DNA of 64,000 nt, from the sequence record OL825705.1; one strand, written 5' to 3'. Position numbers and translations under genes: made by a program. The stretch is from Escherichia phage vB_EcoM_DE7. Below the pieces are notes generated by a model. That model was not told where the DNA came from. It worked only from the letters and a program-made list of their open reading frames with translations, and ran no database searches. Positions 23,856 to 43,524 of this stretch are shown in pieces; within the stretch, counting starts at the first letter, position 1; every line of letters begins with the position of its first letter.

Positions 23856-24371
23856 TCAAGATAGTTTTGCAAACTCTCCGTGGAGTTTCACAGCAGCTTC
23901 ACAGTAAGCTTTATGGGCTTCTTCTTCTGTTGTGTACGTCCCGATATGTATAGTCTTACCATTATGGTTAATCTGGGCTTTCCACTTACCAGACTTACTT
24001 CTACTTGTACCTTTTAAGTTTTTTGATGTTCTAGGTTGCCTCCTATTAGACATGTTCTGTTCTTTTGTGGCCTCTCTAAGATTGTCCCAAGCATTATTCA
24101 AACCGTTCCCGTCTTTGTGGTCAATATGATTGTCAGGCCACTTACCTGTCATCCAGAACCAAGCAATTCGGTGATTGCCTGTCCTGTATCCTAAAATCTG
24201 GGTTTGCATATACACACCAGACCTTGTGCGCTTGATTGTACCAGCCTGTCTTCCAATCACCACCCTACTGCTATGTGGAGGTCTGCCAATCCAAGTCAAG
24301 ACCCCTGTTTCGGGGTCGTAGTCTAACCAAGATTTTAACTGTTCATGTGTGAATCCACAATCTCTCATCAA
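23856..24371 (-). CDS. HNH homing endonuclease with AP2-like DNA-binding domain
   Basis: HNH motif IDHKDGNGLNNAWDNLREATKEQN plus C-terminal AP2-like segment SGKWKAQINHNGKTIHIGTYTTEEEAHKAY. Confidence 0.75.
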   Translation of the reverse strand: MMRDCGFTHEQLKSWLDYDPETGVLTWIGRPPHSSRVVIGRQAGTIKRTRSGVYMQTQILGYRTGNHRIAWFWMTGKWPDNHIDHKDGNGLNNAWDNLREATKEQNMSNRRQPRTSKNLKGTSRSKSGKWKAQINHNGKTIHIGTYTTEEEAHKAYCEAAVKLHGEFAKLS

Positions 24372-24927
24372 TGTACCTCATACCACGATTTACCAACCTT
24401 TGCTGTACCAGTTACAAGTGTTTCTTTCCTCAAACCTAAGTTTTTTGAAGCTTGTCCATACATCCAGTCAGCAATTGCTTTCATATCATGTGTCATACCC
24501 TCTGGACATTCCCAACTATTTTCATCGTGATATGCCAGAAGTAACCTTGCTCCGATAGCTGGTTTTCGAGCATTCAGTTTTGTCAGACCATCTTCACAGG
24601 CTTTTCTTGCTGCTAGGTTGATGGCCTCATTCTGAATCTGTGCTTCCGAACTCATCAGGAGGTAGTTCAGTAGTTTATGTGGAGATTTGCACCATATCCA
24701 TGCTCCAGCGACCCTGATATAACCACCTTTAGCAATTGAAGAATTCTTCCCAAAAACCTCTTCCAGAGCCTTTTTAGACGCCTTAAAATCGGCTTCTAAG
24801 CTATCAAGTAACTTCTTAATCTTTGGCAGACGCATATAGTAGGTCTGCTTAGTCAATGCACCTTCCTCTGTAGAAGCTGCCTTAATGGTTTTGGCAAACT
24901 TCTCATCACCTGCACCGAACAATACAT
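24368..24927 (-). CDS. DNA polymerase (family A), exon 2
   Basis: Begins with motif B remainder LFGAGDEK and ends ...KSWYEVH like the Pol I C-terminus; no ATG, joined to exon 1 by splicing (junction +/- 3 nt). Confidence 0.7.
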
Positions 24928-25732
24928 CTGGTCAATACACTCGCAAGGTGTACCAGTTCTCTTATGAACTTCTCCGCATTTCTACGGAGTGTCGGACTAT
25001 ATCACGTAGTAGTTATACTACCGTTGCACTTGGGAATGGTCATTAGCTTACCACCCTACTCTACTCAGTTCATACATTAAGTATGCTTTTCGATAGTCTC
25101 TGAACGTTTCTCTGTTAGGAATCTCTATAGTTATATCATTTGCTTAGATAGTCAATTGCTCTTTGCATGTTATCAACACTATCTGCAAGCAACCCCAAAG
25201 CTCTGTTGCAATTGTGGCATAACATACCTCTTACCTTTCCGGTTTTATGGTCATGGTCAACAACAAGTTTAGCCTTGTGTCGTGAGCCATTCATGATAAA
25301 ACCTTCACCGCCACAAATTTGACATTTGTAATCACAGTCACGGAGTAGGGCTTCAACCTCTTCTCTTTCCAATCCATATGTTCTTAGGTAGTAATTCTTA
25401 ACTCTACCTTTCTCACCGCAATGTGACGAACAATAAACTTGCCTTGCTGTTCTCGGCATGAACACATTCTCACAACTAGGACATTTCTTAGTAAGAACCC
25501 TGTGTTCCGCCCTTCTGTCAAATTTTAACACACAACTTCTGCACCGTTTTTGATTGTATTGGTACGGTTTAAACTCCGTGCCACACTCAGTGCATAATCT
25601 CTCTTCGTAACCTGCCATTGTCTCTCTCCTTTGTTTTAGGAGTCCTAACAGAGACTTCGCTGCTGATTACCATATCTTTACAGACTTAGGCTTCCAGCAA
25701 TTCACAACGTTTTACATGCGCCACTGACGCAT
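24928..25732 (-). other. group I intron in DNA polymerase gene, carrying an endonuclease ORF
   Basis: Interrupts motif B; stop codon just inside; AGACUA ... GAUAUAGUCCGAC P7-like elements shared with the nrdD intron; hairpin with U-G at proposed 5' splice site; G before exon 2. Confidence 0.6.
25136..25618 (-). CDS. intron-encoded Endo VII-type HNH endonuclease
   Basis: VVDHDHKTGKVRGMLCHNCNRALG motif and zinc-binding cysteines; own SD AAAGGAGAGAGA. Confidence 0.7.
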   Translation of the reverse strand: MAGYEERLCTECGTEFKPYQYNQKRCRSCVLKFDRRAEHRVLTKKCPSCENVFMPRTARQVYCSSHCGEKGRVKNYYLRTYGLEREEVEALLRDCDYKCQICGGEGFIMNGSRHKAKLVVDHDHKTGKVRGMLCHNCNRALGLLADSVDNMQRAIDYLSK

Positions 25733-27902
25733 AAATGCCATTTTTGCTCTTCTTACGACCTTTTGTAATCTCGTGAAGAAGTTCCTCATCCTGTGTCTCC
25801 CTGCAACGAACAATATCCTCTTCTTTGTTAAGACCAAAGTAAATACTGTTCAGTGTATGCGCATCAGTCCCTGTGTAGACTTCATAGAGGTCATTTTCAG
25901 CATCATAACGCAGATACTTGTCAGTTTCTGGGTTAAGATACTTGTCAAGATGTTTACAGTAGTATCTACCATCATCTTGCTTAGTGAACTCTACTGACTC
26001 TTTACCCTCAGTTACCGCTTTAGTGAAGTCTTCATCACCCATAAAGTTACAAAGAAGAACTAGCTGGGCTGAGTTCTGGTCAACAGAAACAATGTTAGTC
26101 CCCTCTTCACAAATCCACACCTCCCTCATAGGTGCTCCATAGACAGCAGCGCCAGACGGTACGTTTACAATACCATATTGAGTCATACGTCCAGTTGAAG
26201 TACCAAATACCATTGCACCAGCACTAAGGCGACCATCAGGACGAATCTGGTTCAACCAACCTTTTTCATCATCCTTTGAGTTCTCAATAGTTCTGCGTCG
26301 GTGCATCAAAGTATAGTATTTAGCAATCTTCTGTCCAAGCTCACCTTCAATCGTATCATAAGATGATTCAGTAAGTTTTGGTGAAGTACGGATTAAACAA
26401 GGTTCAAGTAAATCTGTGTACTTCTTCACAGACCAGTTATGTTCAATGTACTGGACACCTTCATGTTCAACATAACTCAAACCACACCGTTCCACCATCT
26501 CATCCCACTTAGGATGCTTTGTAATCATCTTTTTGTTGTCTTTGAAACGACAAACTTTGACAGGACGACCATCTGAGTCTTTCTTATAGTTCCAGTCATC
26601 TGGAATCCAACCAACTGATTTCAAGTAGTCTTTAACAACCGCTACCTGAGTCATACGAGAAACTTCGAACTCAATTGGTGTATATGGTGCATCAATCAAA
26701 CCTGTGTAGCGACTTGACTCAAGCTCAAAGTGGTTAACAACATGACTGTTATAGTACTTCACAGTTTTTACTGTTTTTACTGGCTTCCAGTCTTTGCATT
26801 TCTTACCAATCTTTGCATTCAACTCATTGCAAATTGCACGAGCATCCTTCATTGCTACAAAACCTTCCTTGTACTCTTCACCAGTTACAGAGTTGGTTGG
26901 TGTATAGCAATTCCGTTTTTCAATGTTAAAAATCTTTGTAGTTGGCTTACCAAATGGCTTGATTTCATATGTCTGCATTTCACCGTTACGTACCTGCTGA
27001 CGATACTTTGTCTTAGGGTACTTGGTAATTCTCTTCAGTCCATCTGCATGACCAAATGCTTCAACATACTCATTCCAAGCTTTTGCAAACTCTTCTCCAG
27101 TGACTTTACCTTTGGTTTTAATAGTCGGAGGTAGATGTGGTTCAACCTCTGAAGCAAGCTCATTAGTCAACTTGTCAAGTTCCTTTACATGAAACTCCAT
27201 AAGTTCTTTATCAGCTTTCCAACCATTGATAGCCTGTTGACTCATCCAGAAAGATGTTTCTTTAGCTCGCATATAGGTTTCATAGGTGTCTACGCCACAC
27301 TTCTTTAACTTCAGATATTCATTATCCAGTGCACGTTTAGTTTTGGCGTTAATACGGATATCCTCTACAACACGAGTGAAGATTTCTGCATTCCACACAC
27401 CCCAATGTTCAATCTCTGGTTTACGTACACCAACACGAGCACCCCATGCAGCCAAGCCATGAGCACCTTTGTAGCCCTTTGGAGTTGGTCTATCCATCCA
27501 CTGAACACGAGACTGGATAAGAGAATCCTGAAAGAAATTACTCCACGGCTTACACTTTGGATTATCAAAGTTCCACAAATCAGGTGCAATGTGATTGAAA
27601 ACCCACCAGTCATATCCCAGACCATTATGGATGCAAAGTCGTTTTGCCTTTAACGCAAACTCAACACCTTCACGCAAACCACCCTTGATGTACTTGGTAT
27701 ACTTGTGACCGAGGATAGGTTCATCTGTAAAGACCCATACAGGTGGCTCTTCATCGTCAGACTTATAGTCTGCGAAAGCCATTACGTGCACTTTAGTGAA
27801 CTCAAGGAGTAAACCATCAGTTTCTGTATCACCAACTAAATGTAAGTTTTTAAAATCTACGTTTTCCATTTCTACTCCCTCTAAATCATTAACCTCATAC
27901 AT
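25733..27902 (-). CDS. DNA polymerase (family A), exon 1 (exonuclease and N-terminal polymerase domains)
   Basis: Pol I-type region DAHTLNSIYFGL ... RKKSKNGIY (motif B start); track ORF 25686..27902 runs 15 codons into the intron before a stop. Confidence 0.8.
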
Positions 27903-41063: not shown

Positions 41064-42260
41064 ATGAACAAAGTACAGATTATTAAAAAGAATGGCTCAC
41101 TTGAAGAACCGGATATCAAAAAAGTTTTAACAGCAGTAACTAAGTCAGCTAACAGGGTTGGTTATAAAGAACTCCCACCAGATGTTATCCAAGCTCTTGA
41201 GTCAGCATTTATGAGGATTCTGGTAAAATCCACTAAGCAGAATAACTTGCTCATCTCGGTAAATGATATCCACAGTATCGTTGAAGGTGCTTTGGCAGAA
41301 GTCAATCACGAGATTTATGAGTCTTACTCAACATATAGAAATTACCGTAAAGAGGTTGCTCAAAATTGGGATGAACTTTACCAAAAGACCAGAGACACGC
41401 TCTTCTTAGGTGACCGTGAAAATGCTAACTTTGACAGTAGTTTAATTTCTACAAAAGGTTCAATTATTCGTGGTTATCTGACTAAAGAAATCTTTAAACA
41501 GTACCATTTAACACCAGAGGAACTTGAAGCCATTGAAAAAGGGTTTATCTACATCCATGACTTAAGAGACCTAATTTTTGGTGGTATTAACTGTTGCCTG
41601 TTCGACATTGGTAAAGTACTGAAAGGTGGCTTTGAAATGTCTGGCATCGAATACTGTGAACCTAAGTCTGTGCTGTCAGCCTTACAGGTTATTGGTGATG
41701 TAGTTCTTTCAGCAACTGCACAGCAATTTGGTGGCTTTACTTTAGCAGAGATTGATAAGGTGCTTGTACCGTATGCTAAGAAGTCTCTACGCTATCATGC
41801 TGAGAAAGCAGCATCTTATGGTATCCCTAAAGAACATTACCATAATTATGTCATGGAGCAGCTACAGATTGAATTAACTCAAGGTTTCCAGTCACTAGAG
41901 ATGAAGCTAAATACTGTACCTTGCAGCCGTGGTGATTTTGCATTCACAACTTTAACATTTGGTTTACTTGACTCAGATATGTCTAATGAAGACAACCGAC
42001 TACAATACATGATTGCAAACACCATTCTTGATGTTCGTATGAATGGACAAGGTAAGAGCAAGAAACCTGTTGTATTTCCTAAACTGGTTTATATCTATGA
42101 CCAGAAGAGACACGATGAGAATATCTGTCAAGGTCAACTGTACAGTAAAGCTATTGAGTGTTGCTCTAAAGCAATGTATCCAGATTTCTTAAGCGTCTCT
42201 GGTCATGGTGCTGTAGCAGAGGCTTTTGAGCGTTCTGGTAAGGTTATTTCACCGATGGGT
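41064..42260 (+). CDS. nrdD: anaerobic ribonucleotide reductase, exon 1
   Basis: N-terminal ATP-cone-like region; reading frame ends ...ISPMG then stop inside the intron. Confidence 0.85.
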
Positions 42261-42576
42261 TAACAAGCTCTATAGCTCATCTAAAACGTGCCTAAACAGG
42301 GAAACTCTACAGGTGTAGACAATCCTGTGCTAAATGATGTACGATGTAAGAAACTATATAACATAGAAGTATTACATGCCAAATAACCTCGAATATGAGT
42401 TTGAGTACATTTAAATGCCGAACGACTAACCGTGATGAATGTAGCGGTGTAGGGTCAAGCGACTCGAAATGGCACGCTACTTAGAAATAAGTAGAAGATA
42501 TAGTCTGGACTTACTGGCGACAGTAAGCAGCTTGAATAAAGCGGGGTAAGCGTAGCGAACTTACCTGAACAACAAG
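42261..42576 (+). other. group I intron (no ORF) in nrdD
   Basis: GUAGACAAUCCUGUGCUAAAU, GACUAACCG and AGAUAUAGUCUGGAC segments resemble the T4 td-type intron core as recalled; exon ends in U, intron ends in G; exons join in frame across PMG|CRAFL. Confidence 0.8.
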
Positions 42577-43524
42577 TGTAGAGCATTTTTATCACCATAT
42601 CATAACGAAGATGGTGAAGAATTTTATGTAGGTCGTGCTAACATTGGTGCTGTATCTTTGAACTTGCCAATGATTTACCAGTATTCTAAAGAGAATGGTT
42701 TAGATTTCTGGAAAGAGCTTGATAAGTACCTAGAGATGATTCGCAGTTTTCACAAGAAACGCTATGAAATGATTGCTAATATGCCAGCAAGTTCTAACCC
42801 TCTTGCATTCACACAAGGTGGTCTGTACAAAGGGACTAAGAAACCTACTGACAAGGTTGGTTGGGATATCGTGAAGTCCTTCACAGCCTCTTTTGGGGTT
42901 ACTGCACTTGATGAATTATCTGTTCTTGCTGAAGGTAAACGACTTCATGAAGTTGGAAGCTATAGTTTTGCATACGATGTTCTGGCATACATTAACATGA
43001 AAACTGAAGAGTTTAAGAACGAAGATGGCTTCTTGTATGCGGTATATGGCACTCCAGCAGAATCACTTTGTGGAACTCAGTTAAAACAGTTCAGAGATAT
43101 GTTTGGCGTTATTAAAGGTGTCTCTGACAAGGAATACTTTACAAACAGTTTCCATATGAATGTTGCAGCAAACATCTCACCATTTGAGAAGCAGGACTTA
43201 GAAGAACCATTCTTCCATATCTGTAGAGGTGGTAGAATCCAGTATGTAAGGGTAGCTAACCCAGAAAACTTACCAGCACTTAAAAGTTGTATTACAAGAG
43301 GCATGTTGAAAGGCTTTTATCAGGGGCTTAACTTTGACTTAGCAATCTGTGAACATTGTGGTAACAGACCAAAGGCTGATGTCGAAGAATGTGAAGTTTG
43401 CCATTCACATGATATCTCTGTGATTAACAGGGTGTGCGGGTACTTGTCATTCACAAAAATTAAAGGTCAGTCTCGAATGAATGACGCTAAGATGGCAGAA
43501 ATTAAGGATAGAGTCTCTATGTAA
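42577..43524 (+). CDS. nrdD: anaerobic ribonucleotide reductase, exon 2
   Basis: Starts CRAFLSPY; C-terminal Zn site CEHCGN ... CEVCHSHD and glycyl-radical motif RVCGYLS. Confidence 0.85.
   Translation, partial: CRAFLSPYHNEDGEEFYVGRANIGAVSLNLPMIYQYSKENGLDFWKELDKYLEMIRSFHKKRYEMIANMPASSNPLAFTQGGLYKGTKKPTDKVGWDIVKSFTASFGVTALDELSVLAEGKRLHEVGSYSFAYDVLAYINMKTEEFKNEDGFLYAVYGTPAESLCGTQLKQFRDMFGVIKGVSDKEYFTNSFHMNVAANISPFEKQDLEEPFFHICRGGRIQYVRVANPENLPALKSCITRGMLKGFYQGLNFDLAICEHCGNRPKADVEECEVCHSHDISVINRVCGYLSFTKIKGQSRMNDAKMAEIKDRVSM

Follow-up and report, generated by a model that had tools for sequence, protein, structure and literature searches.

The nrdD locus and its intron fold

Escherichia phage vB_EcoM_DE7 (OL825705.1) is a Felixounavirus, i.e., a Felix O1-like myovirus, and its nrdD region is 95-97% identical to that of many Salmonella and E. 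coli phages of the genus. In the window, by which we mean the whole stretch of 64,000 nt that was analysed, the anaerobic ribonucleotide reductase gene nrdD is found in two parts, which are separated by 316 nt:

41064..42260, + strand: nrdD exon 1, 399 codons (open reading frame list; Pfam on the spliced protein; collinear with NrdD of wV8 and FO1a)
42261..42576, + strand: predicted group I intron of subgroup IA (T4 td/sunY type) without a functional ORF, 316 nt (Rfam RF00028, fold, helix table and the family model R1 at 125.5 bits)
42577..43524, + strand: nrdD exon 2, 315 codons plus stop (translation; alignment with T4 NrdD; Pfam NRDD and Gly_radical)

Exon 1 encodes the ATP-cone and the N-terminal part of the NRDD barrel and ends with ...ISPMG, the glycine codon GGT being directly followed by a TAA stop at 42261-42263, so that the reading frame of exon 1 extends over 41064..42263 and its final exon base, 42260, is a U. 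Exon 2 opens with TGT, the codon of the finger-loop radical cysteine (CRAFLSPY...); the Zn-site cysteines and the glycyl-radical motif RVCGY follow further downstream. When the exons are joined without positions 42261..42576, a 714-aa NrdD with ATP-cone, NRDD and glycyl-radical domains (Pfam) is obtained, whose Cys400 aligns with C290 of the T4 protein. This spliced product aligns with zero gaps to the uninterrupted 714-aa NrdD of wV8 and FO1a (697/715 and 692/715 identities, respectively, with the stop counted), and the intronless DNA of both phages reads GGT/TGC at the junction (here and below, a slash in a junction marks the boundary). The initial annotation had described a NrdD frame that halts after ISPMG and resumes 316 nt later at CRAFLSPY, giving a continuous protein with Zn site and glycyl-radical motif, and an insert that follows an exon U and ends in G. 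These coordinates proved exact, including U42260 and G42576, and the continuity of the protein is borne out by the gap-free alignments.

Of the Rfam families, Intron_gpI (RF00028) alone exceeds its gathering threshold anywhere in the window. It matches 42191..42527 over the full model (1-253) with E = 2.2e-11, at a score of 55.6 bits that is only modestly above the threshold of 50, and in an alignment that puts P1 wrongly in upstream exon sequence and ends at P9. P1 and P10 were thus derived by hand and checked against the introns of Krischvirus JSE and Vibrio phage F97 (see below), and the helices were verified by script. The minimum free energy fold of the intron (z = -3.6) is more stable than 100 of 100 shuffled sequences and recovers all helices outside the pseudoknot. 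The helices from P1 to P10 can all be drawn, as given below, except that P2 is absent from the 316-nt intron:

42254..42281, + strand: P1, exon GAUGGGU (42254-42260) with guide GCUCAUC (42275-42281), 7/7 pairs, with a U42260-G42275 wobble at the 5' splice site
42268..42274, + strand: P10 guide CUCUAUA, pairing with exon 2 UGUAGAG (42577-42583), 7/7 pairs; adjoins the P1 guide
42287..42292, + strand: 5' strand of P3, CGUGCC, pairing with GGCACG (42471-42476), 6/6 pairs; part of the P3/P7 pseudoknot
42296..42328, + strand: P4 (ACAGGG, 42296-42301, with UCCUGU, 42323-42328) enclosing P5 (UCUAC, 42306-42310, with GUAGA, 42315-42319); all pairs form
42329..42418, + strand: P6 (GC, 42329-42330, with GC, 42417-42418) and P6a (GAUGUAC, 42336-42342, with GUACAUU, 42405-42411)
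42424..42505, + strand: catalytic-core domain closed by P7 (GACUA, 42424-42428, with UAGUC, 42501-42505), enclosing P7.1, P7.2, the 3' strand of P3 and P8
within 42424..42505, + strand: P7.1, ACCG (42429-42432) with CGGU (42445-42448)
within 42424..42505, + strand: P7.2, GGGUC (42452-42456) with GACUC (42461-42465)
within 42424..42505, + strand: P8, CUACUUA (42477-42483), GAAA loop, UAAGUAG (42488-42494)
in the 3' peripheral region 42510..42566, + strand: P9, CUUACUG (42510-42516), GCGA loop, CAGUAAG (42521-42527)
in 42510..42566, + strand: P9.1, GCUU (42530-42533) with AAGC (42539-42542)
in 42510..42566, + strand: P9.2, GGGUAAG (42544-42550) with CUUACCU (42560-42566)
42576, + strand: terminal G (omega-G) and 3' splice site, read from the sequence; the introns of JSE, F97 and T4 and the metagenomic introns at the same site also end in G

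The P10 guide is contained in the loop of P1, and the resulting single 14-nt guide (42268-42281) pairs without a break across the exon junction, covering 7 bases on the exon 1 side and 7 on the exon 2 side. Placing the P10 and P1 guides side by side is the textbook arrangement for lining up both splice sites. All three core motifs named by the initial annotation are present, namely GUAGACAAUCCUGUGCUAAAU at 42315-42335, GACUA at 42424-42428 and AGAUAUAGUC at 42496-42505, and P7 would form the guanosine-binding helix. The assignment to subgroup IA draws on the P7.1 and P7.2 hairpins between P7 and P3 and on the homology to T4 introns. The earlier classification as a td-type group IA intron is thus upheld by these two hairpins, by matches to T4 sunY and td, and by the group I covariance model, which scored above its threshold.

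Comparison with other phages lends further support to the fold. Every helix pairs in three to four lineages, including Felixounavirus, JSE and F97, with compensatory changes in P3, P4, P6a, P7.1, P7.2, P8 and P9. The P1 guide is the same in JSE, and both sides of the helix are altered in F97 (UAUGGGU with GCUCAUG). P10 of F97 is formed by GAUUGGCA and UGCCGAUC with 8/8 pairs and fits the phage's own exon 2; in JSE, it consists of ACA with UGU plus AAACUU with AAGUUU. Depending on the lineage, the second pair of P3 is G-C, C-G or A-U, and its fourth pair, a G-C in the window, is replaced by G-U in sister phages and by C-G in F97. The third pair of P4 is A-U, G-C or C-G across three lineages, and the P6a helices of JSE (8 bp) and F97 (9 bp) are wholly different in sequence yet fully paired.

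A covariance model of the P7-P9 domain was seeded with the four cleanly alignable sequences (the window, JH2, JSE and T4), an earlier MAFFT seed having misaligned P8 and P9 in SHSML-52-1 and in the IMG/VR locus L029. The model matches 49 copies among the collected loci, of which 43 distinct sequences were used for covariation. In this alignment, 98.6% of the cells are paired, compared to 69.7% in shuffles and 28-38% when the partners are slid by 1-3 columns; since the alignment was fitted to the model, it leans towards the structure, which inflates the pairing figures somewhat, though not by the margin observed. Changes on both sides occur in 24 of the 27 pairs of the domain. While P7 is nearly invariant, all pairs of P7.1 and P7.2 (9/9) and all pairs of P8 vary on both sides, and P9 covaries at 7/7 pairs.

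The endonuclease remnant and the origin of the ORF-less intron

Loop L6a bears the trace of a former protein-coding gene:

42343..42404, + strand: loop L6a, remnant of the site of an HNH gene, with the deletion junction ...AUGCCAAAU/AAC... at about 42384/42385
42376..42414, + strand: stub ORF MPNNLEYEFEYI plus stop, 12 codons, in which the opening 3 codons of the HNH gene run in frame into its closing 9 and the stop

Many sister phages contain a 742-nt insert at the same junction, inside which a 154-aa HNH_3 protein is annotated. These longer introns (JH2, UAB_Phi87, Mushroom, BPS17W1, Bas63) share the gene, the junction GGU/UGU and a core that is 95-98% identical; unlike the window, which keeps the 12-codon stub and lacks 142 codons, they have a complete HNH gene. 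Upon alignment with the introns of JH2, Mushroom and phiWec174, the window lacks a single block of 426 nt (these 142 codons) and is otherwise near-identical to JH2. Likewise, 301 of the 316 positions match the intron of Bas63 (JohannRWettstein, MZ501086) once its 426-nt ORF segment is removed. An intact intron-encoded endonuclease is absent from the 316-nt intron, and the visible remnant of the HNH ORF supports the earlier suggestion that the endonuclease was lost. The C-terminal peptide of the stub has homologues at the C-termini of the JSE and F97 enzymes, which are also encoded in L6a and match HNH_3 and an I-HmuI NUMOD-like domain, and the ribosome-binding site of the stub is changed from AGGAG to AGAAG in the source phage only. 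Seven ORF-less copies, from phages of China, Korea, the USA and France and one record without a country, are all exactly 316 nt long and share one common junction. Since both ends of the ORF are retained and the HNH genes of JSE and F97 are homologous and located in the same loop, we conclude that the ORF-bearing state is ancestral and that the 316-nt form is its deletion derivative. Having lost 426 nt of the HNH gene, the intron is therefore unable to home on its own.

The remnant and the surrounding ribozyme differ markedly in their variability. Among ten Felixounavirus copies, 18 of the 62 positions of the L6a remnant are variable, compared to 9 of the 254 positions elsewhere (Fisher p = 2e-8), and the four helix substitutions found within the genus all preserve or compensate pairing. 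This pattern suggests that the ribozyme is under purifying selection and that the ORF stub is drifting.

Taken together, the insert is very probably an ORF-less td/T4-type group IA intron in nrdD, from which the HNH endonuclease has been deleted and whose predicted splicing restores NrdD. The following steps are inferred from standard group I chemistry. The guide CUCUAUA-GCUCAUC would hold both exons, forming P1 with the final 7 bases of exon 1, where the U-G wobble marks the cleavage site, and P10 with the initial 7 of exon 2. A free guanosine held at P7 would then attack after U42260, and the released 3'-OH of exon 1 would attack after G42576, so that ligation of the exons would yield an mRNA for the full 714-aa NrdD. 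In the presumed ancestor, L6a would have housed the gene of a 154-aa HNH homing endonuclease, which is retained in about 50 sister records, and a 426-nt in-frame deletion would have reduced it to the 12-codon stub. The intron, a degenerate mobile element, would persist because the ribozyme must work for nrdD to be expressed.

It is highly improbable that the intron is dead and nrdD is a pseudogene or a pair of separate fragments, comparable to nrdA of Aeh1, which is split by mobE. GenBank depositors do enter the gene as two CDSs or, in D1-2, as a 'similar to' misc_feature, and nrdD is probably dispensable in aerobic laboratory culture, both of which would fit such an inactivated or split gene. 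However, both exons are intact and the encoded protein is 97.5% identical to uninterrupted alleles, the P1/P10 guide fits the exons perfectly, and the core is conserved with compensatory helix changes while the stub drifts. Furthermore, an in-frame stop lies 8 codons 5' of exon 2, and the first in-frame start of its frame is found at codon 28 or later, so that the catalytic Cys400 would be missing from any exon 2 product made without splicing. A split gene or pseudogene is hence rejected on the start and stop layout of exon 2 and on the conservation of the core.

Less probable still is the reverse order of events, in which the 316-nt ORF-less form would be ancestral and the HNH gene would have entered L6a later in some Felixounaviruses. 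Endonuclease genes are well known to invade introns independently, and ORF-less alleles that share the junction are found on the JH2-like as well as the Mushroom-like core haplotype. For the deletion reading favoured here, the latter means that a single deletion needs later recombination between intron alleles, or else that the deletion recurred. Nevertheless, the ORF-less intron retains the HNH start codon and the first three and last nine codons of the gene, in most copies together with the ribosome-binding site. The C-terminal peptide is conserved with JSE and F97 at the protein level though the underlying P6a RNA differs, and the homologous HNH genes in L6a of these two phages imply that the ORF-plus state predates the genus. 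An ancestral ORF-less state was rejected on the retained ends of the ORF.

Within the genus, empty, armed and disarmed sites coexist. Exon 1 is matched by about 207 phage records, the intron (at 95% identity or more) by about 102 and the endonuclease segment by 50, all counts including RefSeq/GenBank duplicates. Roughly half of the genus is thus intronless, a quarter has the armed 742-nt intron and a quarter the disarmed 316-nt intron; the number of ORF-less records is the difference between the 102 intron-bearing and the 50 ORF-bearing records, with the junction verified directly in 7 copies. The stub is too variable for a direct count by megablast, and a 96-nt query spanning the deletion junction returned only 4 full matches. 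The 316-nt allele with the same junction accounts for about half of the intron-bearing Felixounaviruses and has been found on several continents, in phages of both E. coli and Salmonella, and the intron-minus alleles at the same site are those of wV8, FO1a and Felix O1. The natural life cycle of a homing endonuclease can be seen here in a single genus.

The exon sequence next to the intron may also record its history. The first 54 nt of exon 2 (42577..42630) contain 12 mismatches to intronless alleles (22%, compared to 7.7% for the whole gene), most of which are common to the intron-plus phages JH2 and MBP; the last 60 nt of exon 1 contain just 1-4 differences. The diverged tract includes a Phe-to-His change at residue 408 (SPYF to SPYH). 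In addition, the cysteine codon is TGT in intron-plus and TGC in intronless alleles, which turns a C-A mismatch of P10 into a U-A pair. Judged by its sequence, the tract is consistent with asymmetric co-conversion or with divergence of the target site. It is also conceivable, albeit unlikely, that the stub intron is actively favoured rather than merely in decay, as it would occupy and destroy the HNH target and would confer immunity to cleavage by armed co-infecting relatives, with neither the cost nor the harm of a nuclease of its own, and that it might even be spread in trans by the enzyme of these relatives. If so, the stub intron would be a 'vaccinated' allele in the intron-mediated competition between phages.

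Relatives at the same site and in T4

The Gly/Cys site of nrdD is occupied by introns in phages that are only distantly related to the Felixounaviruses, namely JSE (...SPMG/CRSF...), F97 (...SYMG/CRSL...) and at least 7 uncultivated viral contigs. The intron of Krischvirus JSE (NC_012740) has a length of 760 nt and still carries a 173-aa HNH/NUMOD-like endonuclease. It shares with the window the identical site, the P1 guide GCUCAUC, the location of the ORF in L6a and a homologous endonuclease, and the two cores agree at 77.8% of nucleotides; the JSE intron differs in that JSE belongs to the Straboviridae, its NrdD is only about 31-34% identical, P10 is organised differently and the helices show compensatory differences. 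The introns of Vibrio phage F97 and of the IMG/VR loci L025, L029, L030, L048, L052, L059 and L064 likewise have their end G right before the finger-loop Cys codon and share P7 and the P7.1 motif CCGUGAUGAAUGUAGCGG with the window; the NrdD identity of these phages is no more than 24-36%. In the metagenomic introns, the core is more diverged and the 3' end shorter, and F97 has an extended P7.2 and P8. Several of these nrdD genes hold more than one intron. The Gly/Cys boundary at the catalytic tip of NrdD is thus a recurrent landing site of one intron family across very distant phages.

In some phages, several members of this intron family lie near one another. The annotation of F97 (L008, 1..3700) divides nrdD into four pieces and places two HNH genes at two of the junctions between them, and the P7-P9 model matches three times each in the IMG/VR loci L054 and L064 and twice each in L059 and L028.

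Group I introns are typically found in the most conserved codons of their host genes. The tip of the NrdD finger loop, 288-MGCR-291 in T4, bears the critical radical-initiating cysteine (PMC4493059), and an intron at this tip lies in the most conserved codons of NrdD.

T4 also carries an intron in nrdD (sunY), and the initial annotation had suggested that the present intron may be a homed relative of it. The two introns are alike in several respects: they reside in the same gene, begin with UAAC, share the guide GCUCAU and similar exon hexamers (AUGAGU in T4, AUGGGU here), lack P2 and have the P7.1/P7.2 and P9 extensions. Their cores are homologous, with 77.8% identity when the T4 ORF is excised and a BLAST match of 77% to sunY. 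In contrast, the T4 intron is inserted at T4 codon 180 (also in Mosigvirus), about 110 T4 codons upstream of the present site, which corresponds to T4 Gly289/Cys290. The endonucleases are different as well, since I-TevII of T4 is encoded 3' of a contiguous core (intron positions 236-1012 of 1033) and an HNH_3 remnant is located in L6a here. I-TevII is listed as a member of the GIY-YIG family (PMC2988022). Of the proposed relationship, the homology of the core (about 78%) and the common guide hold, and the homing does not, as site and endonuclease differ. The two elements are thus homologous ribozymes that occupy different sites, and their endonucleases are unrelated and lie in different loops; homing did not give rise to the present intron. 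Direct descent from the T4 nrdD intron by homing and loss of I-TevII, which the similarities of core, 5' end, guide and exon hexamers might suggest, is scarcely credible in view of the differing insertion sites and ORF positions, and no I-TevII remnant was found in the 316-nt intron; the mapped sites contradict homing from T4 nrdD.

As homing is site-specific, a move between the two sites needs another process, such as reverse splicing into a P1-compatible site or recombination. The presence of a P1-compatible hexamer at both nrdD sites (AUGAGU, AUGGGU) hints at movement by one of these routes. At the downstream Gly/Cys site, T4 (L010) and Mosigvirus SHSML-52-1 (L009, from 2488) have an uninterrupted ...CCAAUGGGU/UGCCGU..., which would pair with the GCUCAU guide.

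The T4 td intron is the archetypal phage group IA2 intron, with its ORF in the P6 region and a P2. It is about 70% identical to the present intron over the 3' half of the core (BLAST, query 152-311), and differs in its host gene, thymidylate synthase, and in its GIY-YIG endonuclease, I-TevI.

Prior annotation and a second intron in the window

An intron in nrdD has already been recognised in Felixounavirus. In the record of Bas63, NrdD is entered as a joined CDS of two pieces with the endonuclease between them, spanning 742 nt beyond the coding sequence in agreement with the present boundaries, and one intron is given for this phage in the BASEL collection. Other publications describe the locus differently: nrdD of UAB_Phi87 was called 'split' by a homing endonuclease in the paper on this phage, and the SPJ41 paper mentions 'two introns' among the ncRNAs without detail. 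SPJ41 carries the 316-nt allele. The genome paper of Felix O1 reports no introns, and Felix O1 and FO1a are indeed without the nrdD intron. A literature search found no paper that names the Felixounavirus nrdD intron as group I. What is added here is the group I structure, the origin of the ORF-less allele by deletion, the family of introns at the same site and the exact relation to T4.

Most other GenBank records give two nrdD CDSs or a 'similar to' misc_feature. The chief value of these results is for annotation, since nrdD of phages widely used in biocontrol and therapy is one intron-containing gene that is nearly always recorded as split or disrupted. The element itself is ordinary and well understood, and the knowledge of group I introns in general is unchanged. 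Rfam-based annotation will systematically miss the armed form: RF00028 scores 35.7 bits on the ORF-bearing intron of JH2 (L002, 3105..3390), i.e., below threshold, and gives no match at E <= 0.001 on JSE (L006), whereas the contiguous core of the T4 nrdD intron reaches 105 bits. The ORF-bearing form falls below the threshold because the endonuclease gene splits the core at L6a.

The window contains a second group I intron and a free-standing endonuclease-like gene next to it:

25727..27902 and 24368..24924, - strand: exons of a family-A DNA polymerase gene; the spliced product has 910 aa
24925..25726, - strand: second group I intron, in the family-A DNA polymerase gene, 802 nt, with an exon U before it and a final G
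25136..25618, - strand: Endonuclease_7-family ORF in the polymerase intron, 160 aa
23856..24371, - strand: free-standing homing-endonuclease-like ORF with HNH_3 and AP2 domains, 171 aa, with a 4-nt overlap with the 3' end of the polymerase gene

The guide GCGCAU of this intron pairs with exon AUGCGU, and the spliced polymerase reads ...GIYA/LLFGAGDE..., as does the uninterrupted gene of phage bumzen. Rfam gives a partial match of 24.6 bits, and the P7-P9 model matches 24969..25101 with E = 8e-4. Among relatives, the polymerase site may be intronless, may hold an ORF-less intron, as in MBP4696116 and SPJ41, or may hold ORF-plus introns, whose endonucleases differ. At the position equivalent to that of the 23856..24371 ORF, a 'homing endonuclease' gene is present in phage bumzen.

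Felixounavirus nrdD or polymerase sequence (95-97% identity) also occurs in the records MG065668.1 ('Campylobacter phage A126'), MG065684, MG065690 and GU169904.1 ('Staphylococcus phage SA1'). The Campylobacter and Staphylococcus labels of such records probably reflect contamination or mislabelling.
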